A stretch of DNA of 64,000 nucleotides, from positions 122,168-186,167 of the forward strand of contig JAQBRH010000004.1 in NCBI GenBank assembly GCA_028286565.1, in the 5' to 3' direction. The translations under genes were made by a program, and so were the position numbers. How positions within the stretch are numbered: position 1 is the stretch's first letter; every line of letters begins with the position of its first letter. This document shows positions 4,536 to 62,773 of the stretch, in pieces. Below the pieces are notes generated by a model. It had not been told where the DNA came from, did no database searches, and saw only the letters and a list, made by a program, of their open reading frames with translations. This stretch comes from Parcubacteria group bacterium (GTDB lineage: Bacteria > Patescibacteriota > Minisyncoccia > Phycocordibacterales > Zambryskibacteraceae).

Positions 4536-4963
4536 AACTCTAAATAAAAGAAATTGTGCGCTCGAAGAAACTCAACCAGCTCTCCTGAAGTGAGGCTGCG
4601 TCCAAGCTCCTTCTGAACAGCTAGCACCTCAGCGGCAATTAAGGCACGCTTAGTGTGCCTTGCAGAAAAACCCTGAGCTTGAAATTCTTCTACTCGGCTC
4701 GCCCACTCTCTGGTCCAAATTGAGAACCTGGACATAGGACGGAAACGGTTATTCGCGTCATCCCACACACGCACAGCGCGCAATCCCCGCAATCTGTCAT
4801 GAGGGTTTATACCGTGCTTGTTGCATTGTTGTCTTGCCCACTCTCGTGTTCGGTCAAAAATAAGTCCAATGTCGTGGAGGGAATATTGCTCTTCCTCAAT
4901 CAGCAACCTAAGTGAGGGCACGAAGTCTTTATGGCTCACAAGAGAGCTCGCCTTACGTCCCAT
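4523..4963 (-). CDS. Hypothetical protein (146 aa) with a C-terminal helix-turn-helix-like segment
   Basis: C-terminal TKRALIAAEVLAVQKELGRSLTSGELVEFLRAHNF resembles a DNA-binding HTH. Assigned on pattern only. Confidence 0.45.
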   Translation of the reverse strand: MGRKASSLVSHKDFVPSLRLLIEEEQYSLHDIGLIFDRTREWARQQCNKHGINPHDRLRGLRAVRVWDDANNRFRPMSRFSIWTREWASRVEEFQAQGFSARHTKRALIAAEVLAVQKELGRSLTSGELVEFLRAHNFFYLELCPS

Positions 4964-5031
4964 GAGGCTCCTATGGAAAAGAACGGGGGAATTTTTATCT
5001 AAGGTTATTATATCACACTTATTATAAAAAT

Positions 5032-5817
5032 CTAGTCCCTCGTCAAAACGATGTTTCCTTCTTCGGTGATGGCCACTGTATGCTCAAAATGGGCGCTCCT
5101 TGAGCCGTCCTTGGTCTTTATCGTATATCCGTCGTCCGTCAGTTTGATGCCCGGCTTGCCGATGTTCACCATCGGCTCTATAGCTATGACCATGCCCGGG
5201 ACAAGCTTCTCGCCTTTCCCCGCCCGTCCGAAATTCGGCACGTAGGGATCCTCGTGGACCGCATATCCGACGCCGTGTCCGACCAGATCTTCGGCCAGAG
5301 AGAACCTGGATGCATTCACAACATCGGTGATAGCTTCGCCGATATCTCCGATGTGGCTTCCCGGCTGTGCGGCACTGATCCCCGCTTCGAGCGCGACCTT
5401 CGTCACCTGGAGAAGCGTTCGGGCTTCATCGTCTATGGCCCCTACTCCGACCGTGATCGCCGAATCGGTGAACAGCCCTTTATGAATGATAGAAAGATCG
5501 ATGGTCACGATGTCCCCCTGCTTCAAGACCTTCGGGACTTCGTTCGGGATACCGTGCACGATCTCGTCGTTTATTGAAACGCAGAGCACCGCGGGGAACG
5601 GCCGTGAAGCGCCCTCGGGCCGATAGCCGAGATGAGCCGGCTTGTCCCCTCCTTCTCGGACAAGTCGCGCCGCCTCTTCTTCGAGGATAAGGGTCGACAT
5701 CCCCGGTTCGACCATTTCGGCGAGGGCGCGAAGAATTTCCGCGTGGCGCTTGCCTCCTTCGCGGAGAATTTCTATCTCTTCTCTGGTCTTAGTTTTTATC
5801 ATACTGATATTTGGCAA
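5032..5817 (-). CDS. map: Methionine aminopeptidase type I
   Basis: Pita-bread fold motifs (GIPN...DIVTIDL...HGVGYAVHE...IAIEPM...EHTV). The likely true start is MIKTKT at 5799. Confidence 0.95.
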   Translation of the reverse strand: MPNISMIKTKTREEIEILREGGKRHAEILRALAEMVEPGMSTLILEEEAARLVREGGDKPAHLGYRPEGASRPFPAVLCVSINDEIVHGIPNEVPKVLKQGDIVTIDLSIIHKGLFTDSAITVGVGAIDDEARTLLQVTKVALEAGISAAQPGSHIGDIGEAITDVVNASRFSLAEDLVGHGVGYAVHEDPYVPNFGRAGKGEKLVPGMVIAIEPMVNIGKPGIKLTDDGYTIKTKDGSRSAHFEHTVAITEEGNIVLTRD

Positions 5818-16963: not shown

Positions 16964-17079
16964 ATATTCTGGACTGTAGACCGTTACTTATTAATTACCA
17001 CCCGATGTGGTTATGCCCTATTATACACCTCTATTTCTGATTTAAATCAACTCTTGGCCCGACTGTGGATAGGAATCGC

Positions 17080-17640
17080 CTAGAGCCCGAGTTTGTTGTG
17101 GATCTTCTTGTGGTTAAAATCGAGAATATCGCGGACAAGCTTGTCGTAGAGGCCCAAGCGATAGTGGAAATCGGCGGTCTCAAAAGCCGCATAGCGGATC
17201 TCTCGGCCAAGTTCGGCTTCGATCGACTCTATGGCGTGGATAAGGATCCCCTTCTTCAAATGGTCGCCGACAACAAGGAGGTCGACCCGAGCTTCGGGGT
17301 CATGAAGGAATACGCCGGAGATGAGCACGAGCTTGAGGGCGCCGCCGCGGGCCAGCTTTTTTATGAGCTCCTTTTCGGTGATCGGGGTCGCATCGACGAG
17401 GAAATGCTCGAGGGGCTTTAGGTATCTGTATACGGTGTTCAAGGTGTAGCCCTTGGCCCTCTTCCTGATGAGGCCGGAGCGGTGGAGATTTCTGATCTCT
17501 CGGGCGACGAGCGGGCGTCGTTCTTGGGTTCGTTCGGCGACGGTCCCGGCATCATAGACGGAGCCCGGATTAAAGACAAAGAGGCGCATGATCTTTACTT
17601 TAGCCTCTCCGCCGAATATCTGAGCAACCGATTTGGTCAT
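17080..17640 (-). CDS. Hypothetical protein with an N-terminal winged-helix DNA-binding-like domain
   Basis: N-terminal KVKIMRLFVFNPGSVYDAGTVAERTQERRPLVAREIRNLHRSGLIRK resembles a wHTH. The C-terminal part (LVLISGVFLHDPEARVDLLVVGDH...) might be a degenerate nucleotidyltransferase-like fold; this is uncertain. Confidence 0.55.
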   Translation of the reverse strand: MTKSVAQIFGGEAKVKIMRLFVFNPGSVYDAGTVAERTQERRPLVAREIRNLHRSGLIRKRAKGYTLNTVYRYLKPLEHFLVDATPITEKELIKKLARGGALKLVLISGVFLHDPEARVDLLVVGDHLKKGILIHAIESIEAELGREIRYAAFETADFHYRLGLYDKLVRDILDFNHKKIHNKLGL

Positions 17641-26370: not shown

Positions 26371-28200
26371 TTATCTCATAAGCCTGAACTTGAGGAATTC
26401 CTTGATGGTCATACTTAGCTCCTCTCCCGCCGGCTTAAGGGTCTCGAGCGCCAAAGCGCTCTTAACGGACTCATCGGATGCACTCGCGTCGGCGATCTTC
26501 TGCAAAGCCTCGGCGACGCTAGTGTGCTCCGGATCGATCGAATTGTAGATGCTTTCCGAAACCCCGAGCTCATGGCTCAGTTCTACAGGACTTACTTCAG
26601 ACAAAGGAAGGATAGGTTCATGCAGATCTATAGAATTATCCATGGCCTTCGATATTTCCGGCTTGGTATCCATAAGGCCGTGGAGCTTATTGACCTTCTC
26701 TTGGACGAGATCAGAAATTTTGTACGCGGGCTCGGGAGGAGCTTCGTGGATAGGCAGGACCGGTCCTGCGTGAGGCAAAGCAGTTACAGTTTCTGCCTCG
26801 GGGACGGCTTCATGCACTTCTACCTCCGGGACAAGAGCAGTGTGGGCCGTATCTACTGATGAAAGATCGGCCCTCGCTTCGAGAGCGACCGCTTGGACAT
26901 GCGCTAAATTTTCCCACAGACGATAGAAAGAGGTGGTAATGGTTTCGACCGTGGCCGCAGCTACCAAGGTCTTGCCTGCGAACCGAGCATATCGCGCCGC
27001 CATGGCCAGCCCGTCGACGGTTCCATACTGAGTGACGATCTTATCGAATTCCTGGAGGGTTTTTTCTTGTTTGGCAAAAAGGGCTTGTTTCTTTGTTTCT
27101 TTCTCTCTGGGAGAAAGTTTTGGATTGTTTTCTATTTTTGAAATTTTCTTTTCAAGGCTTTCTACGATCGAACTCACTTCCCTCTTCAGCATGCCTTGAA
27201 CGAATTTGTTCGCTTCCGCCGGAGTAGCTCTGCCCAATCTCTCCATGAGGTCTTTTGGCATCTTCTCTGTATAGGCCTTTTTGAGGTCTTCCGCCGTGAT
27301 TTCATGACCTTGGGATTCATCTTCGGCCTTTGTATAAATATTCCAAGCTTCTTCCTCTGCCTTATCCACATCAGCAAGTCTTGTCTGCTCGATCACCTCT
27401 TCGTTTTGCAGACGGACTTCTAGGGCAGCATCTCCGCCTCTGGCCACTCCGGCGCCGGCAAGCATCACGTAGCGGAGCGGAGAAGCGATGGCGTTGCCCG
27501 CAAAGTCGGCCGCGATACGTCCGTATTTCATCACATTTCCGGCCAAAGAAAGGGCATTCGAGATACGGGCGGTCTTCCCGTTCTTTGCATCAATGCCTTT
27601 TTGATACGCGGCATCGGCATCTTTAGTAAAAGAATCCCTGAGGGCGCCGCACCATTTGTTTACCGGATGATCCTCGCCGATCTTTTTTATCGTGTCCGAA
27701 TTGAACCAGCCGGCAAAGATCCTGTTCTTCTTTTCATCGAGGTTGAAGCCTATCCTATTCAGTCCCCACCCGATCTTTTCCCTTTCCGGAGCAGGGATAG
27801 CCTCTATCTCTGCCGCCGCCTTATCCTCCCAGCTTTCTTCCGATCCTTCTGAGACTTCTGAACTTCCGCCGAATAAAGACTTAGCCTTTCCCCAAAAGGT
27901 TTGCTTCTTGGATTTTTGTCTTTCAGCTACCTTGGTTAAAAATTCCGCTGAAGAATACGTAAAAGCTGGATTCGGGTCCCATGTCTCACCTTTATGAGGG
28001 TGTTTAAGTTCAGGCCCGGTCGGTTCAGGAGCGGGCGCTTCATCTTTTTTGGCCTTTGGCTCTTGTTCGATCGGCATTGCTAGAGAGATCTCTCTTTCGA
28101 GCATCTTCTCTGCTTCTTCTTGAGTAACAGGAATAGGAACTTCCACATCCCTCGGATTTTCTGGAGAATTACTCGAATTGTTCTCGAATCTTTCGGACAT
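26371..28200 (-). CDS. Large acidic hypothetical protein (609 aa) inserted between fusA and tuf
   Basis: Uninterrupted 1.8-kb ORF with no TM segment and no catalytic motif, rich in E/K/A/S. It has its own upstream terminator/promoter region (28231-28272) and a downstream terminator, so it is monocistronic. Confidence 0.7.
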   Translation of the reverse strand: MSERFENNSSNSPENPRDVEVPIPVTQEEAEKMLEREISLAMPIEQEPKAKKDEAPAPEPTGPELKHPHKGETWDPNPAFTYSSAEFLTKVAERQKSKKQTFWGKAKSLFGGSSEVSEGSEESWEDKAAAEIEAIPAPEREKIGWGLNRIGFNLDEKKNRIFAGWFNSDTIKKIGEDHPVNKWCGALRDSFTKDADAAYQKGIDAKNGKTARISNALSLAGNVMKYGRIAADFAGNAIASPLRYVMLAGAGVARGGDAALEVRLQNEEVIEQTRLADVDKAEEEAWNIYTKAEDESQGHEITAEDLKKAYTEKMPKDLMERLGRATPAEANKFVQGMLKREVSSIVESLEKKISKIENNPKLSPREKETKKQALFAKQEKTLQEFDKIVTQYGTVDGLAMAARYARFAGKTLVAAATVETITTSFYRLWENLAHVQAVALEARADLSSVDTAHTALVPEVEVHEAVPEAETVTALPHAGPVLPIHEAPPEPAYKISDLVQEKVNKLHGLMDTKPEISKAMDNSIDLHEPILPLSEVSPVELSHELGVSESIYNSIDPEHTSVAEALQKIADASASDESVKSALALETLKPAGEELSMTIKEFLKFRLMR

Positions 28201-53558: not shown

Positions 53559-54359
53559 ATGACCTCGATCATCACCTGGAACGTGAATGGTATCCGAGCC
53601 GTACACAAAAAAGGCTTATTTGTGCCCTTTATAGAGGAATACAACCCGGATATCCTCGCCCTTCAGGAAACCAAGGCCGAGCGCGGCCAAGCTGAGATCG
53701 ATCTGCCTGCATATAAAGAGTACTGGAACTCTTCGACCAGAAAGAAAGGCTACAGCGGGACGGTCATTTTCACCAAAGACGAGCCCGAGGCCACGAACAT
53801 CGGTTTCCCTATGGATATAGTAGAGAAATATGGCCTAGATAAAGACTCCTACGGCGATCCGAACGCCGAAGGCCGGGTCATTACGGCCGAATATAAGGAC
53901 TTTTTCCTTGTGAATTCTTATACCCCGAACTCCAAACCCGACCTCTCTCGCCTCTCGCTTCGGCACAAGCAATGGGACCCGGCTTTCCTTGAATATGTAA
54001 AACGACTGGACGAAAAGAAGCCCGTCATCTTTACCGGAGATCTGAATGCCGCCCACACCGAGGACGATCTGGCCAATCCAAAGGCCAATGAAGGCGAGCA
54101 CGGCTTCACCAAGGAAGAGCGCGAAGGGATAGACAAGATCATCGCCGCAGGGTTCGTGGACGCCTTTAGGGAGTTCACAAAAGGCAACGGGCACTACACG
54201 TGGTGGAGCCACTTTGCCTATGCGCGAGAGCGAAATGTCGGCTGGAGAATAGACTACTTTTTCGTTTCAAAACGGCTGATGAAGCGGGTAAAAAGTGTTG
54301 AGATCCTTGATCATATTCTCGGTTCTGACCATTGTCCGGTTCGAATTGTCCTTGACTGA
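53559..54359 (+). CDS. xth: Exodeoxyribonuclease III (AP endonuclease)
   Basis: WNVNGIRA, LQETK and C-terminal SDHCPV motifs of the ExoIII/APE1 family. Confidence 0.93.
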   Translation: MTSIITWNVNGIRAVHKKGLFVPFIEEYNPDILALQETKAERGQAEIDLPAYKEYWNSSTRKKGYSGTVIFTKDEPEATNIGFPMDIVEKYGLDKDSYGDPNAEGRVITAEYKDFFLVNSYTPNSKPDLSRLSLRHKQWDPAFLEYVKRLDEKKPVIFTGDLNAAHTEDDLANPKANEGEHGFTKEEREGIDKIIAAGFVDAFREFTKGNGHYTWWSHFAYARERNVGWRIDYFFVSKRLMKRVKSVEILDHILGSDHCPVRIVLD

Positions 54360-54394
54360 TTTCCCCTCACAAAAGGACATCAAGTTTTGTTATT

Positions 54395-54410
54395 TGTGGA
54401 GTTATCCACA
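54395..54410. promoter_or_regulatory. Perfect DnaA box TTATCCACA embedded in a 16-nt palindrome TGTGGAgtTATCCACA, next to an AT-rich tract
   Basis: Exact 9-mer consensus at 54402-54410, with a second perfect box in opposite orientation at 54827-54835. Confidence 0.5.
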
Positions 54411-54667
54411 GTTTTTATTTATTTTTGTCCTTTAAGGAGTATACTTCTATCCAGACGCAAAGCAGTGAATGTGGTTCCATCTGAACAACGCGAACTGCGG
54501 CATGGCACCTTGGGGTTAGTCGACGAACCCCTGAAAGAAGTGTTTGGTTTAAGAAGTGGGCCAACGCGAGGACGACATATCGACACCTTTATTTATGCGA
54601 TATAGTCTGTACATCGCTCCCCTCTTTTGCTGAGACTTCCTTTCCCTGGTCAGCCAGCAGCTGACAA

Positions 54668-54700
54668 CCCCGCCCCGCAGTTCGCCATGCGTGGCGGTTT
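54668..54700 (+). terminator. Hairpin cgcca-tgcg-tggcg followed by TTTTTTATTT in a non-coding region
   Basis: Terminator-like structure with no credible upstream CDS; it could mark the 3' end of an ncRNA. Confidence 0.4.
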
Positions 54701-54826
54701 TTTATTTGCCCAGAGCGGGAGATCAGGAGGATTGTCCTTCACCCGTCCCTTATACATAAGTGCTAAACTTAATAGGTGTCTTGAAAGCCCTTGGTTGAGC
54801 GGTGACTATACAACAGTTCTCGAATA

Positions 54827-54835
54827 TGTGGATAA
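54827..54835. promoter_or_regulatory. Second perfect DnaA box (TGTGGATAA, the reverse complement of TTATCCACA)
   Basis: Exact consensus, 425 bp from the first box, in the same 590-bp non-coding region. Confidence 0.5.
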
Positions 54836-54951
54836 CTATGGGGAAACTGTGTATTACGGACAGTTTTATAAAGTCATATGGCCTTAAGTCCCTTATTTTA
54901 AGCCATATTTTGGAAATAGATTTCACGTGAAACTATACACATAGGTTACAC

Positions 54952-55383
54952 ATGGAACAAGATAGAAGAACAGCCAAGCGTAAGCTTGGGGATATAGGAG
55001 AGTCTATAGCCTGTGATTATCTCACGAAGCATGGCTTTGCAGTCCTCGAAAGGAACTACCTGCGCAAATGGGGAGAGATCGATATCGTGGCCAAGAAGGG
55101 CAAGATCCTGCGCTTTATAGAGGTAAAGAGTGTTTCGTGTGTAACATTGCCTCCAATCGTTCCACATGTAACCTTGGGCCGTAGCCAGGCGGGCGAGGCG
55201 GATGGGTATAGGCCGGAAGACAATGTTCATCCTCAAAAGCTCCGCAGGCTGGCTCGGACCATACAGACATATCTCTTAGAGAAGAGGCTGGACGGGGATT
55301 GGCAATTGGACATCGTCACGGTCAAAATAAGCGAAAAGGACCGGATGGCCCGGGTAGAGATGATCGAGAATATTATTATCTAG
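54952..55383 (+). CDS. yraN: YraN/UPF0102 family endonuclease-like protein
   Basis: GEIDIVAKKGKILRFIEVKS matches the UPF0102 signature (GEIDLI...FVEVK); carries a ~30-aa insertion. Confidence 0.8.
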   Translation: MEQDRRTAKRKLGDIGESIACDYLTKHGFAVLERNYLRKWGEIDIVAKKGKILRFIEVKSVSCVTLPPIVPHVTLGRSQAGEADGYRPEDNVHPQKLRRLARTIQTYLLEKRLDGDWQLDIVTVKISEKDRMARVEMIENIII

Positions 55384-55401: not shown

Positions 55402-55860
55402 TCAACCTTGAATATATAAATACCAACGAGTATTTTTCTTCCCATTTATATAAAAGTCATACCACTGCCTCATGAATTTGGCCTTGGTCATGCGTCGGAA
55501 ACCTCCAAGCTCCGGATCCATCATCCAGAGAGTCCTGCCTGTCATCTTGTATACAACCGAATAATGGCCGTCTGCAGGCGCCCCATAGTCAGACCACCAA
55601 TTGACGAGCACCGGGGTGTCCGAATCCACGAGAGTTTTCAATTCATTCCAAGTGCCCTTGTCCTTTGTTTTGACCTTAAATCCGAGCTTTTTGAGGCCTT
55701 TGGCAAGAGCTTCGGGCTCCGTCCCATTCTCAGTCGTGGTACCACAAAGACGGCCAAGTTCCGGCTCGGTCATATTTTTGCCATAGTATTGGACCAAAGA
55801 CACAAGGCTCGCCGGCCCACAGAAGCTCGCGCTTTGGCGGATAGGTTTGAGGCTGATCAT
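55402..55860 (-). CDS. Peptidase C39-like cysteine protease domain protein (standalone)
   Basis: QSASFCGPASLVSLVQYYG resembles the C39 catalytic Q...CGxAxL..YYG block, and a downstream His (..ADGHYSVVY..) is consistent with the Cys/His dyad. Start placed at MISLKP to avoid overlap with the tRNA. Confidence 0.65.
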   Translation of the reverse strand: MISLKPIRQSASFCGPASLVSLVQYYGKNMTEPELGRLCGTTTENGTEPEALAKGLKKLGFKVKTKDKGTWNELKTLVDSDTPVLVNWWSDYGAPADGHYSVVYKMTGRTLWMMDPELGGFRRMTKAKFMRQWYDFYINGKKNTRWYLYIQG

Positions 55861-55872
55861 AGAGTATCGAAT

Positions 55873-55946
55873 GGTGCGGGATGGGGGAATCGAACTCCCG
55901 ACCACAGTTTGGAAAACTGTTGTTTTACCACTAAACTAATCCCGCA
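55873..55946 (-). tRNA. tRNA-Gly (anticodon UCC), CCA encoded
   Basis: Manual fold: acceptor gcgggat/atcccgc, anticodon stem acagt/actgt with loop tttccaa, T-loop ttcgatt, 3' ACCA. Confidence 0.8.
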
Positions 55947-56186: not shown

Positions 56187-57239
56187 ATGTCCGTGAGATC
56201 AACCGTCTTATTCCTGGTCGGCATTCTCCTTATCGGGGGATCTATTTTTTACTTTCTAAAGCAGCCGGCTCCGGACCGCCGAGCTTCGGCTTATGCATAT
56301 GATTCGAGCGTATGCAACACCGACTCGGACAAAAGCGCCTGCCTCAGCACCTTCTATGCCCACCTCGTCGACGCGTACGGAGCAAAGACGGCGATCGAGG
56401 ACTTGAAAACGCGAGGCGGGGAAGATCAGAGCGTGATGGGCCGATGCCACCCCTACATGCACACCATAGGGGAGAGCGCTTCGGAAAAATACAAAACCGT
56501 TTCTGAGGCCTATCTCTATGGAGATCCGTTCTGCTGGAGCGGGTATTACCACGGCGTCCTCGAAGGCGTGACGGCGAAGATCGGGGAAGAAAAGCTCCTG
56601 GCGAGCTTGAATTCGATCTGTGCGGACATCCCGGGCAAAGGAACCTACAGCTTCAACTACTACAACTGCGTGCACGGCCTCGGCCACGGGATCATGGAGC
56701 TCAAGGGAGACGAGCTCTTTGATTCGTTGAAGACCTGCGACAGCCTCATCGGAGATTGGGAACAGCAGTCCTGCCAGAGCGGGGTCTTCATGGAAAATGT
56801 CATTTTGTATACGAACTACGGCAAATCCGCCTACCTGAAGCCCGAAGAACCCCTCTATCCGTGCACGGCGGTCGAGGACAAATATAAATATCAATGCTAC
56901 CTCGGGCAAACCTCGTTCGCCTTGGAAGCGTCTCAGTATGATTTCAAGAAGGTGGCCGATCTCTGCACGACGGTTAAAGGACAATATAGAGATATATGTT
57001 TCCAAAGCCTCGGGCGAGATGCGGCGAATCAGGCAGGCCATGGATCTCCTAAGACAAGAACGACCTGCGACCTTGCTTCCATCCATACGGACAGAATGAA
57101 TTGTTATGTAGGAGCAGTGAAGGAATTTATCTCATATTACCACTCGATAACGGAAGCCAATGGCTTTTGCGGAGCGCTTGATGAAGCGGATAAAACCTCA
57201 TGCGTGCAGACGGGGGAAGAGTACTACAAAGCCTTCTGA
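56187..57239 (+). CDS. Membrane-anchored Cys-rich secreted protein (350 aa, ~20 Cys) of unknown function
   Basis: N-terminal TM (VLFLVGILLIGGSIFYF), then a domain with many spaced Cys and a GLGHG motif; no family recognised. Confidence 0.55.
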   Translation: MSVRSTVLFLVGILLIGGSIFYFLKQPAPDRRASAYAYDSSVCNTDSDKSACLSTFYAHLVDAYGAKTAIEDLKTRGGEDQSVMGRCHPYMHTIGESASEKYKTVSEAYLYGDPFCWSGYYHGVLEGVTAKIGEEKLLASLNSICADIPGKGTYSFNYYNCVHGLGHGIMELKGDELFDSLKTCDSLIGDWEQQSCQSGVFMENVILYTNYGKSAYLKPEEPLYPCTAVEDKYKYQCYLGQTSFALEASQYDFKKVADLCTTVKGQYRDICFQSLGRDAANQAGHGSPKTRTTCDLASIHTDRMNCYVGAVKEFISYYHSITEANGFCGALDEADKTSCVQTGEEYYKAF

Positions 57240-57467: not shown

Positions 57468-58931
57468 ATGGTTACACTAAAGATCCCCAAAGAGATACAC
57501 GCTGTTTCAACTATTCTCAAAAAAAATAATTTTGAGGCTTTTGTCGTGGGAGGATCCGTTCGCGATCTCTTGATCGGACGAACTCCGACGGACTGGGACC
57601 TCACGACGTCCGCTACTCCGGAGAAAATAGTGGAGCTTTTTCCCCACACCTTTTATGAGAACGATTACGGCACCGTCGGAGTAGTAAACGACGAGACCGA
57701 AGATGAAACTCTTAAAACCGTAGAAGTAACTCCGTACCGGATCGAATCCGGCTATTCTGATTTCCGCCGCCCGGACAAAGTTGAATGGGGAAAGACGGTG
57801 GATGTTGACCTCGCGCGCCGAGACTTCACCATGAATGCGATCGCCTACGATGTGGATACAAAGACGCTTGTGGATCCATTTCACGGAGAAGAGGACATCC
57901 GGAAGAAGCTTATCCGCACAGTAGGGAAGCCGGATGAACGTTTCAGCGAAGACGCTCTCCGCATGCTGAGAGCCATCCGCCTCTCGGCCACGCTCGGCTT
58001 CGCCATCGAGCACGACACTCAGAAAGCGATCGAAGATAACAAGCAGCTGCTCGCCCATATTTCCAAAGAACGCATCAGAGATGAGTTCATAAAGATCATT
58101 TTGTCCGAAGCTCCGGCTCAAGCGCTCGACCTCGCCGCACGACTCGGCGTGCTCAAATATATCTCTCCGGAACTTTTGAAGGGCATCGGCGTCGAACAGA
58201 ACCGAGCGCACGCGTACACCGTCTGGGAACATCTTCTGCGTTCGCTCCAGCACGCCGCAGATAAAAAATATCCGCTTCATGTTCGGGTCTCCGCTCTTCT
58301 TCATGACATAGCCAAGCCCCACACCAGAAAATGGTTGAATGATCAGTGGACCTTTTACGGACACGAAGTGGTCGGAGCAAAGATCGCGAAGAGCTTACTG
58401 AACGATCTGAAATTTCCAAAAGAGATCGTGGACAAGGTGCACAAACTCGTTCGCTGGCATATGTTCTTCTCGGATACCGAAGAGATCTCGCTCTCGGCTG
58501 TTCGTCGCATGGTGCGAAACGTCACTCCGGAGCTCATTTGGGACCTCATGGATGTTCGTGCGGCGGACAGGATAGGCACTGGCAGGCCAAAGGAAGCTCC
58601 GTACCGCCTCAGGAAGTACCACGCGATGATCGAAGAGGTCATGCGCGATCCGATCAGCGTAAAGCAGCTCAAGGTGAACGGGGGAGATATCATGAAGATA
58701 ACGAGCGCTCCGGCGGGACCGCATATCGGTTTCATCTTGGAAATTTTGCTCTCAGAAGTGCTTGAAGATCCAAAGTTGAATACAAAAGAATATTTGGAGG
58801 ACAAGGTCCGGGAGTTACACGCACTTTCTCCGGAGGAACTTTCACAGCTCGGAAGGGAAGCGCGAATGAGGAATGAGCTCGAGGATGAGAAGGAGGTAGA
58901 GAAGATCAAAGGCAAACACGGGGTGAAGTAG
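57468..58931 (+). CDS. cca: tRNA nucleotidyltransferase (CCA-adding enzyme) with a C-terminal HD domain
   Basis: Pol-beta nucleotidyltransferase head (GGSVRDLLIGRTPTDWDLTT), tRNA-NT body and an HD motif (LLHDIAKP); 487 aa. Confidence 0.85.
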   Translation: MVTLKIPKEIHAVSTILKKNNFEAFVVGGSVRDLLIGRTPTDWDLTTSATPEKIVELFPHTFYENDYGTVGVVNDETEDETLKTVEVTPYRIESGYSDFRRPDKVEWGKTVDVDLARRDFTMNAIAYDVDTKTLVDPFHGEEDIRKKLIRTVGKPDERFSEDALRMLRAIRLSATLGFAIEHDTQKAIEDNKQLLAHISKERIRDEFIKIILSEAPAQALDLAARLGVLKYISPELLKGIGVEQNRAHAYTVWEHLLRSLQHAADKKYPLHVRVSALLHDIAKPHTRKWLNDQWTFYGHEVVGAKIAKSLLNDLKFPKEIVDKVHKLVRWHMFFSDTEEISLSAVRRMVRNVTPELIWDLMDVRAADRIGTGRPKEAPYRLRKYHAMIEEVMRDPISVKQLKVNGGDIMKITSAPAGPHIGFILEILLSEVLEDPKLNTKEYLEDKVRELHALSPEELSQLGREARMRNELEDEKEVEKIKGKHGVK

Positions 58932-58990
58932 TTGACACTCATAATAAAATAGGTTATTATCCAAATAGATCACTCTTCCCTCGAGGCTCC

Positions 58991-59362
58991 ATGAAGAAAG
59001 TTCTTCTGATCGAAGACAACGAAATGTTCGTCAAAGCTTTCAAAGCTCTGACCAAGCACAAAGCGCCGGAGATCATCCTCCTCACCGCAGAATCAATCTG
59101 GGATGGACGCGCGCTCATGGACACCCACAAAGATTGGGATCTGGTGATCCTCGACGGGTCGATCAATGCTCCGCTCGACGGACTTGAGCTGATCGAAGAA
59201 CTGCGTACCTGGAACTATGAAGGACCCATCCTCACTATCGCCGGGACAGGAACCGACCGTCAGAAAATGCTCGAGTTCGGAGCTACTGACGAAGCCGACA
59301 AAACTCTCGGTCCATCTAAAGTGATCGAGAAGGCGCTGGAGATACTCGCACGAGCCACATGA
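58991..59362 (+). CDS. Single-domain response-regulator receiver (CheY-like) protein
   Basis: MKKVLLIEDNEMF...DLVILDGSI...GPILTIAG matches a REC-domain layout of 123 aa with no output domain. No histidine kinase is present in the window. Confidence 0.7.
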   Translation: MKKVLLIEDNEMFVKAFKALTKHKAPEIILLTAESIWDGRALMDTHKDWDLVILDGSINAPLDGLELIEELRTWNYEGPILTIAGTGTDRQKMLEFGATDEADKTLGPSKVIEKALEILARAT

Positions 59363-59374
59363 ACATTGCTGAAT

Positions 59375-59400
59375 GCCGCAACACACCGCGGCGTTTTTTA
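59375..59400 (+). terminator. Terminator gccgc-aacacac-gcggc plus T6 after the receiver gene
   Basis: GC stem followed by ttttttatttat. Confidence 0.65.
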
Positions 59401-59411
59401 TTTATACACAA

Positions 59412-59438
59412 ACAAAAAATCCTCTTTGCGGGAGGATC
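59412..59438 (-). terminator. Terminator atcctc-tttgcg-gaggat plus T-run after hup (minus)
   Basis: Minus-strand read caaaagatcctcccgcaaagaggattttttgttt. Confidence 0.65.
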
Positions 59439-59461
59439 TTTTGCAATGATCTGTAAAAAGA

Positions 59462-59734
59462 TTATTTGACTGCGTCTTTCAGGGCCTTTGCGGGGCGGAA
59501 CTTGGGAACGCGCATTGCGGGAACCGAGATCGATTCGCCGGTACGAGGATTTCGCGCCATGCGAGCCGCTCGAGTCTTCGTCGAGAAGATGCCGAGGCCA
59601 GCGATCGATACTTCGCCTCCTTTTTTCAAAGAAGAAACGATCGAATCGATGATAGTGTCGACGACTTCTTCCGCTTGTACCTTCGTACCGCCGAGCTTGC
59701 CGTGAACTGCTTCCACGATTAATGCTTTATTCAT
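59462..59734 (-). CDS. hup: HU-family nucleoid DNA-binding protein
   Basis: 90 aa with the HU arm GLGIFSTKTRAARMARNPRTGESISVPAMRVPKFRPAKALKD. Confidence 0.93.
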   Translation of the reverse strand: MNKALIVEAVHGKLGGTKVQAEEVVDTIIDSIVSSLKKGGEVSIAGLGIFSTKTRAARMARNPRTGESISVPAMRVPKFRPAKALKDAVK

Positions 59735-59857
59735 TTTGCTTGCTTAAACCGCTGATAAACGTTTGATCAGGATTTGGAATCCTATAAAAATTATATAGGA
59801 AGCCATTTTTTAAGCAACAACCTTGAAAATCTGGAACTTTATTGTATAAAAATCAGT

Positions 59858-61387
59858 TTATCTGGCGAACTCGATGGCGCGCTGTTCGCGGATGACATTC
59901 ACCTTGATCTCGCCCGGATATTTAAGATCGCGCTCGATCTTTAAAGCTATATCCCTGGCCATTTTCTGAGCTTCAAGGTCGGTCACTTTCTCCGGAGTGA
60001 CGAAGACTCGGATCTCTCGGCCCGCCTGAAGGGCATAGGCCTTTTCGACTCCGGGGAAGGCAAGAGCGATGCCTTCAAGGTCGCCAAGGCGCTTCAAATA
60101 GTGCTCAACTGTGTCCCGGCGGGCGCCCGGGCGGCCTCCGGAGATAGCATCCGCGGTCTGGACGATGATCGACTCGATAGTTTCGTACGGATATTCTCCG
60201 TGGTGAGCTTGCATGGCTTTGATCACATCCTCGGATACATTAAATTTCTGCAGGATCCTGCGTCCGATCTCCACGTGCGTGCCTGAAACTTCATGATCGA
60301 GAGCTTTGCCTATGTCGTGGAGAAGGGCGCCGGCCTTGGCCACCGCGACGTTCGCTCCGAGTTCTTCGGCGATCATGCCCGCGAGGTGGGCCATCTCGAC
60401 CGAGTGGTTAAGCACATTTTGTCCATATGACGTTCGGAAGAAGAGGCGCCCGAGGATAGCAAGGAGTTTTGGATCAAGGTTATAGACTCCGCACTCAAAG
60501 GCCGCGGCTTCGCCTTTCTCTTTGATCATCTTATTTATTTCAGCGCGAGCGTTCTCGACGAATTCTTCGATCTTCGCCGGCTGAATGCGCCCATCGACGA
60601 GAAGATTCTCGAGAGCGAGCTTCGCGACCGCCCGGCGCACGGGGTCGAACGAAGAGAGGGTGATGGATCCGGGAGTGTCATCAACGATCACTTCGACTCC
60701 CGTCGCTCGTTCGAAAGCTTTGATGTTGCGGCCTTCCTTACCGATGATCTTGCCCTTGAGCTCGTCCGAAGGAAGGGGGACAGAGGTGGCCATCACTTCG
60801 CCTGTGACAGAAGAAGCGAGGCGCTGGATCACGGTAGATAATATTTCTCGAGCTCGATCGGACAAGCGCTCTTCGGCCTGGCTTTCGAGCTTTTGCATGC
60901 GGACCAAGAGATCCTCCTCTGCGTTCCTCTCCGCGAGGGCCAGAAGCTCTTCTTTTGCCTCTTCGACCGAAAGACCCGCCACCTTGGCGAGTTCTTGGTT
61001 GCGGAGCTGGATCAGCTCGTCGGCCCGTTCGCGAATGGCGCGGATCTCCGAGGCTTTCTCTTTTATATATTCGGCTTCTTTATCAATATCGACCTGGCGC
61101 TTGTCCAAGAACTCCTCCTTTTTGACCAAGCGGTCCTCGGTCTTCTTGGTTCTCTCTTCGCGCTCGCCGATGACGGTCTCTGATTTATCCAAAAGCTCGC
61201 TCGCCTTTGCCTCTGCCTCGTCAATGACCGCTTCGGCCTCTTCTCGGGCCCGAAGTTCCATCTGTTTGATGTCGAGCTCCATCGAACCCTTGCGGCCGAG
61301 GGAGATGATGAGGCGCAGCAAATAGCCGAACCCTGTACCGGCGGCGGCGGCGAGCAATGCTAATAAAAAAGCTAACTTAAGCGACAT
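59858..61387 (-). CDS. rny: Ribonuclease Y
   Basis: N-terminal TM, coiled coil, KH domain (GKIIGKEGRNIKAFERATGVEVIVDD) and HD domain (LLHDIGKALDHEVSGTHVEIG). Confidence 0.93.
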   Translation of the reverse strand: MSLKLAFLLALLAAAAGTGFGYLLRLIISLGRKGSMELDIKQMELRAREEAEAVIDEAEAKASELLDKSETVIGEREERTKKTEDRLVKKEEFLDKRQVDIDKEAEYIKEKASEIRAIRERADELIQLRNQELAKVAGLSVEEAKEELLALAERNAEEDLLVRMQKLESQAEERLSDRAREILSTVIQRLASSVTGEVMATSVPLPSDELKGKIIGKEGRNIKAFERATGVEVIVDDTPGSITLSSFDPVRRAVAKLALENLLVDGRIQPAKIEEFVENARAEINKMIKEKGEAAAFECGVYNLDPKLLAILGRLFFRTSYGQNVLNHSVEMAHLAGMIAEELGANVAVAKAGALLHDIGKALDHEVSGTHVEIGRRILQKFNVSEDVIKAMQAHHGEYPYETIESIIVQTADAISGGRPGARRDTVEHYLKRLGDLEGIALAFPGVEKAYALQAGREIRVFVTPEKVTDLEAQKMARDIALKIERDLKYPGEIKVNVIREQRAIEFAR

Positions 61388-61538
61388 TTGCGGAATGGAT
61401 CCGCTTTCGAGTCTCTATATGGTGGGGTTGGAAAGGAAGGCGAGGCGGTCAGACGGACGTGGAGGGAAGGACAGAGGGTACCGAAAGCGAACAGTTTCAA
61501 TTAATCGTGTAGAGGGGAACAATTAGAGAGTACCCTAC

Positions 61539-62114
61539 CTAGAGAACTTTGTCTATGATGCCGTACTTTTTGGCGTCATCCGCTCCCATAAAAAAGTCTC
61601 GGTCAACATCCTTCTCGACTTTTGATACTGGCTGCCCTGTAGCCGAGGCCATCATTTTAATCAGACTGTTCTTGGTTTTAAGGAGCCATTCGGCGCGAAT
61701 AACGATGTCGGAGGCCTGCCCCTCGGCTCCTCCAAGGGGCTGGTGGATCATCACTTCAGAATTAGGGAGAGCAAATCTTTTGCCCTTAGCCCCGGCTGCT
61801 AACAGCCAAGCTCCTCCGGAAGCTGCCATGCCTACACACAAAGTCGAAACATCCGGTTTTATGTGGTTCATAGTATCGATCATCGCCAAGGTGGCAGTTA
61901 CCGAACCGCCGGGAGAATTGATATACAGAGAGATGTCTTTCTTCGCATCTTCTGACTGGAGAAAGAGAAGCTGGGCAATGACGATGTTGGCCGAATCATC
62001 GTCGATAGGACCGGTGAGAAATATGATCCGCTCCTTGAGGAGACGTGAATATATATCATAGGCGCGTTCGCCGAGAGGGGACTTCTCTATAACTGTGGGT
62101 ACGAGGTAACTCAT
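61539..62114 (-). CDS. clpP: ATP-dependent Clp protease proteolytic subunit
   Basis: Catalytic triad context [11 protein letters not shown] (Ser), MIHQPLGG (His) and downstream Asp. Start taken at [11 protein letters not shown] because the track ORF adds an implausible S/K-rich 44-aa N-terminus. Confidence 0.95.
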
Positions 62115-62151
62115 GCCGACACTATATATAAAAGGAGGAAGAGAATCAACT

Positions 62152-62420
62152 TTAGTGGCCGAGCTTGAGGGCGCCGATCTCTTTTTCGATCTGGGCGAGC
62201 TCTTCTTCGAGGGCGGGGAGCTTGCTCTCATGCAGGACCTCATCATGATCCGTACCGTTGTTGAGCTCGAGGGAAACGCGATGAGCTTCGGCTTCGACCT
62301 CTTCGTTCAATTTCCGTGCCTTATCTGCGAGAGTGTCCATTTCTCCTTGTCGCAGGGGATCATGAGCGGCCGGAGTGTTTTCAAGATAAAACTTCGAATA
62401 CGATTCTGTTTGTTTTTCCA
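62152..62420 (-). CDS. Small coiled-coil hypothetical protein (~86-89 aa)
   Basis: ORF preceded by a terminator (62441-62470) and a TATATA box abutting the ATGs (leaderless pattern). Heptad-like C-terminus ([17 protein letters not shown]). Confidence 0.4.
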
Positions 62421-62473
62421 TACTAGGCATTATATAGATAAAAATAAAAAAAGCCCGTACACGCGTACGGAGC

Positions 62474-62773
62474 TCATTTGACGACAAATCCGCTTATGTG
62501 CTCGGCCATGGCGCGCAGAACGAGGGGATCGAGAACCTCGGCCGACTGACCCGAGATCTGCAGCTCGAGAAGCCGGTTGTTCAGGGCCCGATTGTAGTCG
62601 GTGTACCTCACCAACAGAGCGTTGCGAGAGATGGTTCTGCTTTGTAGATAAGCGTCGAGGTGCATTAGGTGATCTCTACACGCTTCATCCCCCAGCAAGT
62701 CTCTCACCAGGGCAAGGTTTTTTGAGTCTATCACCCCGAGCCCGTCGACTTTCTCATGACTAACGGCAGACAT
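62474..62773 (-). CDS. Hypothetical protein (99 aa)
   Basis: ORF followed on the minus strand by the hairpin gctccgtac-gcgt-gtacgggc plus a T-run; no motifs. Confidence 0.4.
   Translation of the reverse strand: MSAVSHEKVDGLGVIDSKNLALVRDLLGDEACRDHLMHLDAYLQSRTISRNALLVRYTDYNRALNNRLLELQISGQSAEVLDPLVLRAMAEHISGFVVK

Follow-up and report, generated by a model that had tools for sequence, protein, structure and literature searches.

DnaA boxes, a putative structured RNA gene and a parS-like site between xth and yraN in Paceibacteria

The genes xth and yraN of a Parcubacteria group bacterium (contig JAQBRH010000004.1) are separated by a 590-bp spacer that carries DnaA boxes, the features of an RNA gene and a site resembling parS. 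It is with this spacer that the present work is concerned. The DNA analysed is a stretch of 64 kb, called here the window, and all positions without a locus name refer to it. A first-pass annotation had pointed to the spacer as a possible origin of replication (oriC) or noncoding RNA (ncRNA) locus, citing two perfect DnaA boxes, an AT-rich tract and a terminator with no gene before it. To my knowledge, almost nothing is known of how replication begins, and how the tiny chromosomes are passed on, in bacteria of the Candidate Phyla Radiation (CPR), a group not easily cultured, and a search of the literature on CPR origins, on parS with yraN and on CPR ncRNAs found nothing specific.

The spacer was aligned with its three closest relatives (L001, L002 and L006), and 161 related Paceibacteria loci retrieved via xth, 1.11 Mb in total, were scanned for motifs. 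The best xth relatives are metagenome-assembled genomes labelled Kaiserbacteria, Paceibacterota or Parcubacteria; scans of genomes and metagenomes gave no relative with an xth identity above 76%.

The spacer and its DnaA boxes

The features of the locus are collected in Table 1. The spacer is non-coding, as the first-pass annotation held: no open reading frame (ORF) of at least 40 amino acids begins within it at ATG, and the idea of a small protein is rejected, since relatives with alignable DNA offer nothing that matches the TTG ORFs at the level of protein. Its two perfect DnaA boxes, TTATCCACA within TGTGGAgtTATCCACA and the reverse complement TGTGGATAA, read as they had been described. The pair was said to be more than the roughly 0.5 occurrences expected for one 9-mer on both strands would allow, and so it is: just one further perfect box, at 27362, makes up the three found in the window. 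That inventory was nonetheless incomplete, since it overlooked two degenerate boxes beside box 2 and the parS-like site.

The loci of relatives tell the same story at larger scale. They contain 50 perfect boxes where 8.5 are expected. Seventeen of these lie directly after xth, all on the xth strand (plus orientation), and 15 lie upstream of yraN, every one in the orientation that reads TGTGGATAA towards yraN. Enrichment together with fixed orientation excludes chance as the source of the boxes.

A broader class of 9-mers, those within one mismatch of the DnaA box, is also in excess in the window: 21 of them, the three perfect ones included, against 8.5 expected (found in 3526-52915 and 57851-62651). 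Of the 13 to the left of the spacer, 12 are on the minus strand, where the genes of that region have their sense sequence; codon usage is therefore the probable cause of the excess. Three fall within 180 bp (17064-17243), inside a ribosomal-protein operon.

Table 1. Features of the xth–yraN spacer and its surroundings, in order of position
Feature	Position	Strand	Remarks
xth, exodeoxyribonuclease III family (Exo_endo_phos)	53559-54359	+	Pfam PF03372, E=5.9e-31; upstream flank; anchor of module 1 in all relatives
AAAGGACA, inverted copy of the TGTCCTTT element	54372-54379	+	upstream of box 1; inverted repeat with 54426-54433
Weak hairpin TTGTGGAGTTATCCACAG and T-run	54394-54421	+	terminator scan; terminator-like end of xth; holds box 1
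DnaA box 1, TTATCCACA inside TGTGGAgtTATCCACA	54402-54410	+	perfect; centre ~46 nt upstream of the inferred RNA start
AT-rich tract gtttttatttatttttg	54411-54427	+	after box 1; read as a weak -35/UP region (clade comparison and my own reading of the spacing)
TGTCCTTTA element	54426-54434	+	in promoter spacer; corresponds to second TGTCC copy of other clades; putative factor site
-10 hexamer TATACT of the ncRNA promoter	54440-54445	+	same in window, L006, L002 and L001
Putative structured ncRNA (xth-downstream RNA)	~54452-54703	+	~250 nt; 5' end CAGACGC conserved
Intrinsic terminator of the ncRNA, hairpin TCGCCATGCGTGGCGG (54682-54697) and TTTTTT	54682-54703	+	terminator scan; the "orphan" terminator of the first-pass annotation
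Triple DnaA-box array	54827-54856	+	one perfect and two degenerate boxes
Box 2, TGTGGATAA (reverse complement of TTATCCACA)	54827-54835	-	perfect; first unit of array
Array unit 2, TGGGGAAAC	54839-54847		3 mismatches
Array unit 3, TGTGTATTA	54848-54856		2 mismatches
CGGACAG, degenerate AAGGACA element	54857-54863	+	directly after triple array
Inferred yraN promoter, TGGAAA-17-TATACA	54911-54939	+	my own reading, by inference only
parS-like site GATTTCACGTGAAACT	54919-54934		core TTTCACGTGAAA at 54921-54932, a perfect palindrome; in spacer of inferred yraN promoter
yraN, UPF0102 family, nuclease-like protein	54952-55383	+	Pfam PF02021, E=3.1e-18; downstream flank; anchor of module 2
cca, CCA-adding enzyme	57468-58931	+	position in the window

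Module 1: a DnaA box at a fixed place before a promoter

The box that follows xth is one part of a larger arrangement, called here module 1. In 39 loci the same promoter grammar is found: TTATCCACA (with at most one mismatch)-N2-5-TGTCC-TTTAnn-N16/17-TAnnnT. The gap between box and TGTCC is 3-4 nt in 35 of the 39, and the distance between the -35 and -10 elements is 16 nt in 30 loci and 17 nt in the remaining 9. The leading part, a box with at most one mismatch followed after 2-5 nt by TGTCCTT, stands on the xth strand in 34 of the 39. TTTACA is a near-consensus -35 hexamer. Counted from the inferred start, box 1 of the window occupies about -50 to -42, nearly the same as in other clades (about -53 to -45). 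What varies is the number of boxes: one in most relatives, two in L069 and four in L031.

The first-pass annotation had also remarked on an AT-rich stretch abutting box 1, and it is there. In the window clade it occupies the place where other clades have a TGTCC-TTTACA copy containing the -35, and it doubles as the T-run of the hairpin at the end of xth. That hairpin is specific to the lineage of the window and is absent from L001, L002 and L006.

A second signal accompanies the box. The TGTCCTTT element occurs 242 times in the loci where 34 are expected, an excess of about 7-fold, and the arrangement AAAGGACA-box-TGTCCTTT is found in at least 14 relatives. The window has a single perfect copy of GTCCTTTAAGG. 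The TTTACA part of the TGTCCTTTA motif does act, judged by its position, as the -35 of the module 1 promoter. The notion that TGTCCTTTA is a promoter element in general was considered and rejected, since it is absent upstream of nearly all of the 35 tRNA genes examined. As an observation apart, TGTCCTTT(A) is found in the window at 54371-54379, 54426-54434 and 56975-56983; its copies are often paired, as direct or as inverted repeats, they lie beside DnaA boxes, and some fall inside cca.

Read as a whole, module 1 looks like a promoter of the sigma-70 type that has a consensus DnaA box directly against its -35 side and carries TGTCC(TTTA) repeats for a putative factor. The box keeps a fixed distance and orientation with respect to the core promoter elements, as a box in a DnaA-regulated promoter should.

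A putative structured RNA of about 250 nucleotides

If there is a promoter, what does it transcribe? Within the window clade, conservation resumes at CAGACGC (54452), precisely the predicted +1, and continues to the terminator. The hairpin with T-run that had been noticed at first pass as having no coding sequence before it is recovered by a terminator scan, and L001, L002, L006 and many further loci have an equivalent GC hairpin with T-run where the homologous stretch ends. In 37 loci module 1 is followed by a non-coding stretch of 230-390 nt, placed in most cases ahead of the 3' end of cca. A strong terminator closes this stretch in 21 of the 37 by automatic detection and in further loci by eye.

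The RNA of the window is predicted to fold more stably than shuffled sequences (minimum free energy, z = -2.4). RNAalifold was applied to an alignment of three sequences (the window, L001 and L002). The consensus has several helices with 64 pairs in all, and compensatory changes occur in 22 of these, a number that none of 500 shuffles attains (9.0+/-2.2); slid controls yield 0-4. A covariance model built from the window clade matches L001 and L002 at E ~1e-76. A sister clade of RNAs (L009, L011, L016, L018, L020, L031, L093, L100 and L161) has conserved blocks of its own, including CGATTGGATGCAAACGTAnTTTGTC, a hairpin of variable stem with a CUCU/CUCC loop, and a long 3' hairpin that is 96% paired and shows 8 covarying pairs, against 4.2+/-1.1 in shuffles and 0-4 in slid controls.

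The RNA evolves fast. Covariance models of one clade do not detect the others, nor does nhmmer, so homology across clades rests on position and synteny, on the promoter grammar and on a short GUUCUU motif found across clades 15-75 nt from the RNA start. On these grounds I infer that the RNAs of all clades make up one family.

No known RNA accounts for them. The Rfam scan suggested by the first-pass annotation yields no match at E<=10 in 54200-55100; applied to relatives, Rfam finds only tRNAs at gathering score (18 relatives) and nothing on the RNA at E<=5 (8 relatives), and ARAGORN finds no tmRNA. Likenesses seen by eye to the P4/CR of RNase P, helix 8 of SRP RNA and the paired ends of 6S RNA are coincidental, and the known families are rejected. 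There is a resemblance of a general kind to 6S, tmRNA, RNase P, SRP, OLE, raiA and ROOL RNAs, in the 230-390 nt range, strong promoter, intrinsic terminator, covarying multi-helix fold and conserved position. The xth-downstream RNA differs from them in matching no covariance model, in having ends that do not pair as in 6S and in diverging much faster.

What the first-pass annotation had offered as an alternative, a small RNA ending at the orphan terminator, is supported by these features: the conserved promoter, the defined 5' end, the intrinsic terminator, the lack of a conserved ORF and covariation above controls are those of an independent ncRNA gene, as predicted from sequence. On this reading the spacer holds a previously undescribed structured RNA gene, one without an Rfam family.

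Two observations on the RNA stand to one side. The sister-clade model finds an RNA inverted relative to xth in L036 (3383-3540, minus strand), and L161, a contig of 6.5 kb, carries two copies in opposite orientations (1344-1497, minus; 4954-5109, plus). In the window, 54490-54500 and 54675-54685 (GCGAACTGCGG and CCGCAGTTCGC) show a perfect 11-nt long-range complementarity, which overlaps the 5' arm of the terminator and could therefore form an alternative pairing akin to an anti-terminator. It is not conserved in L001 or L002 and so was set aside as a structural element.

Module 2: a triple array of DnaA boxes upstream of yraN

Box 2 does not stand alone but begins an array of three, spaced about one helical turn apart. 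By a formal cluster criterion the triple array is found in 22 loci, with offsets of 0/12/20-21 in most, and at least 16 loci keep the block TGTGGATAAnnnTGGGGAnATGTGnATnA-AAGGACA. In relatives the sequence beyond the array is ...ATTAAAGGACA, and an inverted TGTCC often comes next. The gene yraN is visible in 13 of the 22 loci, and in all 13 the array shares its strand and precedes the yraN match by about 90-360 nt. The yraN family is also present in L022.

If the promoter given in Table 1 is correct, transcription of yraN would start about 5 nt before its ATG, making a near-leaderless mRNA. A -10-like element lies 2-4 nt after the parS-like site in most relatives. The boxes of both modules occupy fixed positions relative to the predicted promoters of the flanking transcription units, which supports the earlier suggestion that they regulate a flanking gene.

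parS-like sites in and around the spacer

The palindrome within the inferred yraN promoter matches TGTTNCACGTGAAACA, the consensus of parS. The site GATTTCACGTGAAACT agrees with it at all 12 positions of the core and at 13 of 16 overall. The palindrome ATTTCACGTGAAAC is invariant in the 4 relatives aligned. There is one copy of the core in the window. In the 1.11 Mb of loci, copies with at most one mismatch number 109 (50 of them perfect) against 2.5 expected, with up to 5 in a single 8.8-kb locus, and G/C flanks stretch the logo of the 109 to GTTTCACGTGAAAC. In 16 of the 31 loci with yraN, a copy lies no more than 70 nt before the beginning of that gene. The site has, in sum, the properties by which parS is known from sequence: a palindrome matching the consensus and, in the loci of relatives, copies clustered in a non-random manner.

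Most copies in relatives are within coding sequence, 50 inside cca and 23 inside yraN. Those in cca (L022, L041, L042, L036 and L003 are examples) have a hot spot near residue 320, where they encode FSRET. Those in yraN (L019:7500-7541, L010:7898-7933, L020:5832-5867 and L013, for example) are in some cases tandem, adding repeats of the peptides SRE/FSHET to YraN. The window's own cca and yraN have no such copies. That parS-like sequences are embedded in genes points to selection at the level of DNA for ParB sites.

Two modules that travel separately

The two boxes had been taken at first pass as a single cluster, and here the comparison with relatives speaks plainly against the annotation. 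In about 15 relatives inspected by eye, the order of the locus is xth (plus strand), module 1, about 300 nt of non-coding DNA, cca (minus strand), genes for tRNA-Arg and tRNA-Gly, module 2 and yraN (plus strand). The cca and tRNA genes, about 2.3 kb, part the box 1 module from the box 2 module, and the boxes are therefore two independent modules, not one cluster. The gene of about 490 amino acids between the modules was considered as a possible dnaA and rejected, as it encodes the CCA-adding enzyme. What seemed to be small ORFs beside it are the tRNA genes.

In the window, L002 and L006, cca has shifted to the far side of yraN, on the plus strand, along with a tRNA-Gly(gcc)/tRNA-Arg(tcg) pair. 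It is this departure that has brought the modules within 430 bp of each other. In L013 the unit of module 2 and yraN is inverted and placed upstream of xth. The neighbourhood, in other words, rearranges around modules that stay intact.

A proposed function for the locus

I propose, with moderate confidence, that the spacer is a compact hub for regulation and chromosome maintenance: a DnaA-box promoter with its structured ncRNA gene, then the array and, at the yraN promoter, a parS site. The locus would mark a part of the chromosome close to the origin of replication, without, in all probability, being that origin. DnaA would serve as a transcription factor, binding box 1 and filling the triple array cooperatively, and the output of the ncRNA and of yraN would be tied to the level of DnaA-ATP, hence to the replication cycle. 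The array may in addition titrate DnaA as a local sink, as datA and the DnaA-box clusters of B. subtilis do. ParB would nucleate at parS, and at the further copies in the cca and yraN genes of relatives, making the neighbourhood a partition (centromere) zone. The partition zone of bacteria lies near oriC, with which it need not coincide.

DnaA-regulated promoters and parS sites are elements of a known kind. Among the former are the autoregulated promoter of dnaA, those of sda, yydA and ywlC in B. subtilis and that of nrdAB in E. coli. Module 1 is like them in having a consensus box at a fixed, conserved distance and orientation by a sigma-70-type promoter. It is unlike them in that its predicted product is a structured ncRNA and not a protein gene, in that the box is always paired with TGTCCTTTA, and in being known here from sequence. 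I know of no described bacterial ncRNA under direct control of DnaA. The parS-like sites resemble the known centromeres at which ParB binds in their perfect 12-bp palindromic core, their overall agreement with the consensus, the clustering of copies in relatives and the logo. They differ in that most copies of relatives are in cca and yraN, the window's lone copy is in a promoter spacer, and no ParB is seen in the window. Three things are new: a structured, unannotated RNA that occurs throughout the clade and whose promoter is apparently controlled by DnaA, the fixed module of triple box, parS and yraN, and the presence of parS in coding sequence.

What the sequences themselves show are the motifs, with their geometry and enrichment, and an RNA stretch that is conserved, covaries, closes with a terminator and lacks coding potential. 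Several considerations weigh against this proposal. The binding of DnaA and of ParB, like the direction of regulation, the start of transcription and the function of the RNA, is predicted, in the case of binding from matches to a consensus, and genes for DnaA and ParB are not seen in the window. The covariation structures were derived from the same small alignments in which they were scored, that of the window clade being three sequences, and the models do not cross from one clade to another. The array stands anywhere from about 70 to 330 nt from the yraN start, a looser placing than one expects of a classical operator and one that an origin or a titration site would accommodate just as readily. 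Finally, a distal single box with proximal tandem boxes resembles the layout of incC in B. subtilis (PMC6669920), an analogy that leads directly to the question of the origin.

Is the spacer an origin of replication?

It is conceivable, though unlikely, that the region is the chromosomal origin or part of it, detached from dnaA. Box 1 would then be a distal box, the array a region where DnaA oligomerises, 54860-54920 the stretch that unwinds, parS an adjacent centromere, and the promoter of the ncRNA a source of transcriptional activation. Several observations speak for this. Four DnaA-box-like sites (the array and box 1) lie within 460 bp of non-coding DNA, three of them about one helical turn apart, in a spacing and orientation kept in at least 22 relatives. 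The array is followed by a moderately AT-rich stretch, about 68% AT in 54860-54920 by my count. Sites like parS cluster here, and such sites are reportedly origin-proximal as a rule. The genes on the left for ribosomal proteins, tuf, fusA and secY are all transcribed away from the spacer. And the layout resembles that of incC, where one distal box works together with two proximal ones and may stand 132-462 bp away, facing either way (PMC6669920). Like incC, the locus has tandem boxes in the same orientation, the upstream one being the best match, and another box at a distance of a few hundred bp; the moderately AT-rich stretch by the array may be a further likeness.

Against the origin stands, first, the matter of its gene company. 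The first-pass annotation was right that dnaA and dnaN are missing: Pfam, run on the 38 ORFs of the window, finds neither these nor any other origin-marker gene. Nor are dnaA, dnaN or parAB found in the flanks of 160 relatives. Searches by tblastn with DnaA, Spo0J and Soj gave no match in the window or in the 161 loci (+/-4 kb flanks), with B. subtilis queries and without a positive control. In Paceibacteria dnaA-dnaN-rnpA-rpmH are reported as a cluster near virB4 (PMC12102498), and none of the four is at this locus.

Second come the internal features of the locus. A run of DnaA-trios, by the criteria of PMC8287927, has at least 3 NAN repeats (consensus 3'-GAT-5') no further than 16 bp from a box; inspected by eye on both strands, neither module has one in the window or in 16 aligned relatives. 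The AT-richness after the array is not conserved, the equivalent stretches of L013, L014 and L018 being about 50-58% AT by my count, and the AT tract by box 1 is confined to the window clade. Box 1, which incC would make a distal box, is accounted for by its fixed position in a promoter, and in the relatives with cca between the modules the supposed halves of the origin are 2.3 kb apart.

Third, there are the surroundings. The GC skew undergoes no change of sign in the 64-kb window, and the skew at 4-fold sites is dominated by codon bias; both measures are uninformative, and 64 kb is too little of the genome to place a genome-wide minimum. To the left of the spacer the genes run on the minus strand for 51 kb. 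To the right they return to it at 59.8 kb and keep to it as far as 66.9 kb at least, 2.9 kb beyond the window (rny, clpP, M16 peptidase, tig, ppa and small ORFs), leaving the plus-strand block of 53.1-59.4 kb as a 6-kb island. Taken together, the results lean against the earlier conjecture of a non-canonical origin.

One can go further and imagine a true Paceibacteria origin of a bipartite kind, with two DnaA-box modules flanking cca or, as in the window, only the ncRNA gene, with the RNA taking part in initiation (by activation, priming or control of the initiator) and with a ParB centromere in the neighbouring coding sequences. I regard this as more doubtful than an origin in general. Should the origin lie here after all, the interest of the locus would rise considerably.

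Other explanations

Perhaps the array is mainly a sink for DnaA, of the type of datA or the B. subtilis clusters, that buffers free DnaA after initiation, while the RNA and yraN are mere neighbours. The precedents are datA of E. coli and six DnaA-box clusters of B. subtilis, and the array is similar to them in being a cluster of boxes outside the assumed origin, intergenic and origin-proximal, the last as implied by parS. A high-affinity box with cooperative weak boxes in a fixed arrangement would serve such an end, and the variable distance to the yraN start also speaks for it. I nevertheless consider it a long shot. Three closely packed sites are few for a titration locus, and the array keeps a fixed orientation and a strict linkage to yraN and a parS site. 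The linkage to yraN has survived rearrangement, both in L013, where array and yraN are inverted as a unit, and in the window clade, where cca has moved, and this points to a relationship in cis between array and yraN. A sink also leaves unexplained why box 1 should be bound to a promoter.

That the non-coding stretch is a long 3' untranslated region of xth or a degenerating remnant of cca's departure, with boxes due to chance or left as relics, is very improbable: it is true that cca fills the interval between modules in relatives, that the RNA evolves fast and escapes the covariance models of other clades, and that the weakness of the xth hairpin (54394-54411) makes read-through plausible, but in 39 loci the stretch is preceded by a complete conserved promoter with 16/17-nt spacing, in relatives it lies before cca and not in its place, its compensatory changes exceed controls, tblastn with the window's CCA enzyme finds no match in the spacer, and the enrichment and orientation of the boxes rule out chance.

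What the locus may offer

On the proposal of a DnaA- and ParB-associated hub, the locus gives three conserved handles, all of them predicted, on replication and segregation in CPR bacteria: a DnaA array, a ParB zone partly within coding sequence and an RNA that looks abundant and has a DnaA box on its promoter. The RNA, if the proposal is true, would connect the initiator of replication with regulation by RNA, and this in organisms whose regulatory repertoires are minimal. Its family, absent from Rfam, could be added there. The promoter grammar provides a first view of promoter architecture in Paceibacteria.

Two minor features of the window may be mentioned. The strand bias of genes to the left of the spacer is very strong, an unbroken run of 51 kb (1535-53060) having about 47 genes on the minus strand, among them the S10-spc ribosomal operon, tuf, fusA, secY, pgk, tpiA, recJ, comEC and type IV pilus genes. 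To the right, an ORF at 55402-55905 (minus strand) that matches Peptidase_C39 (E=7e-17) has a start that overlaps the 3' part of the tRNA-Gly gene (55872-55945, minus strand) by about 34 nt. Probably its start codon is further downstream, or the ORF is a remnant.

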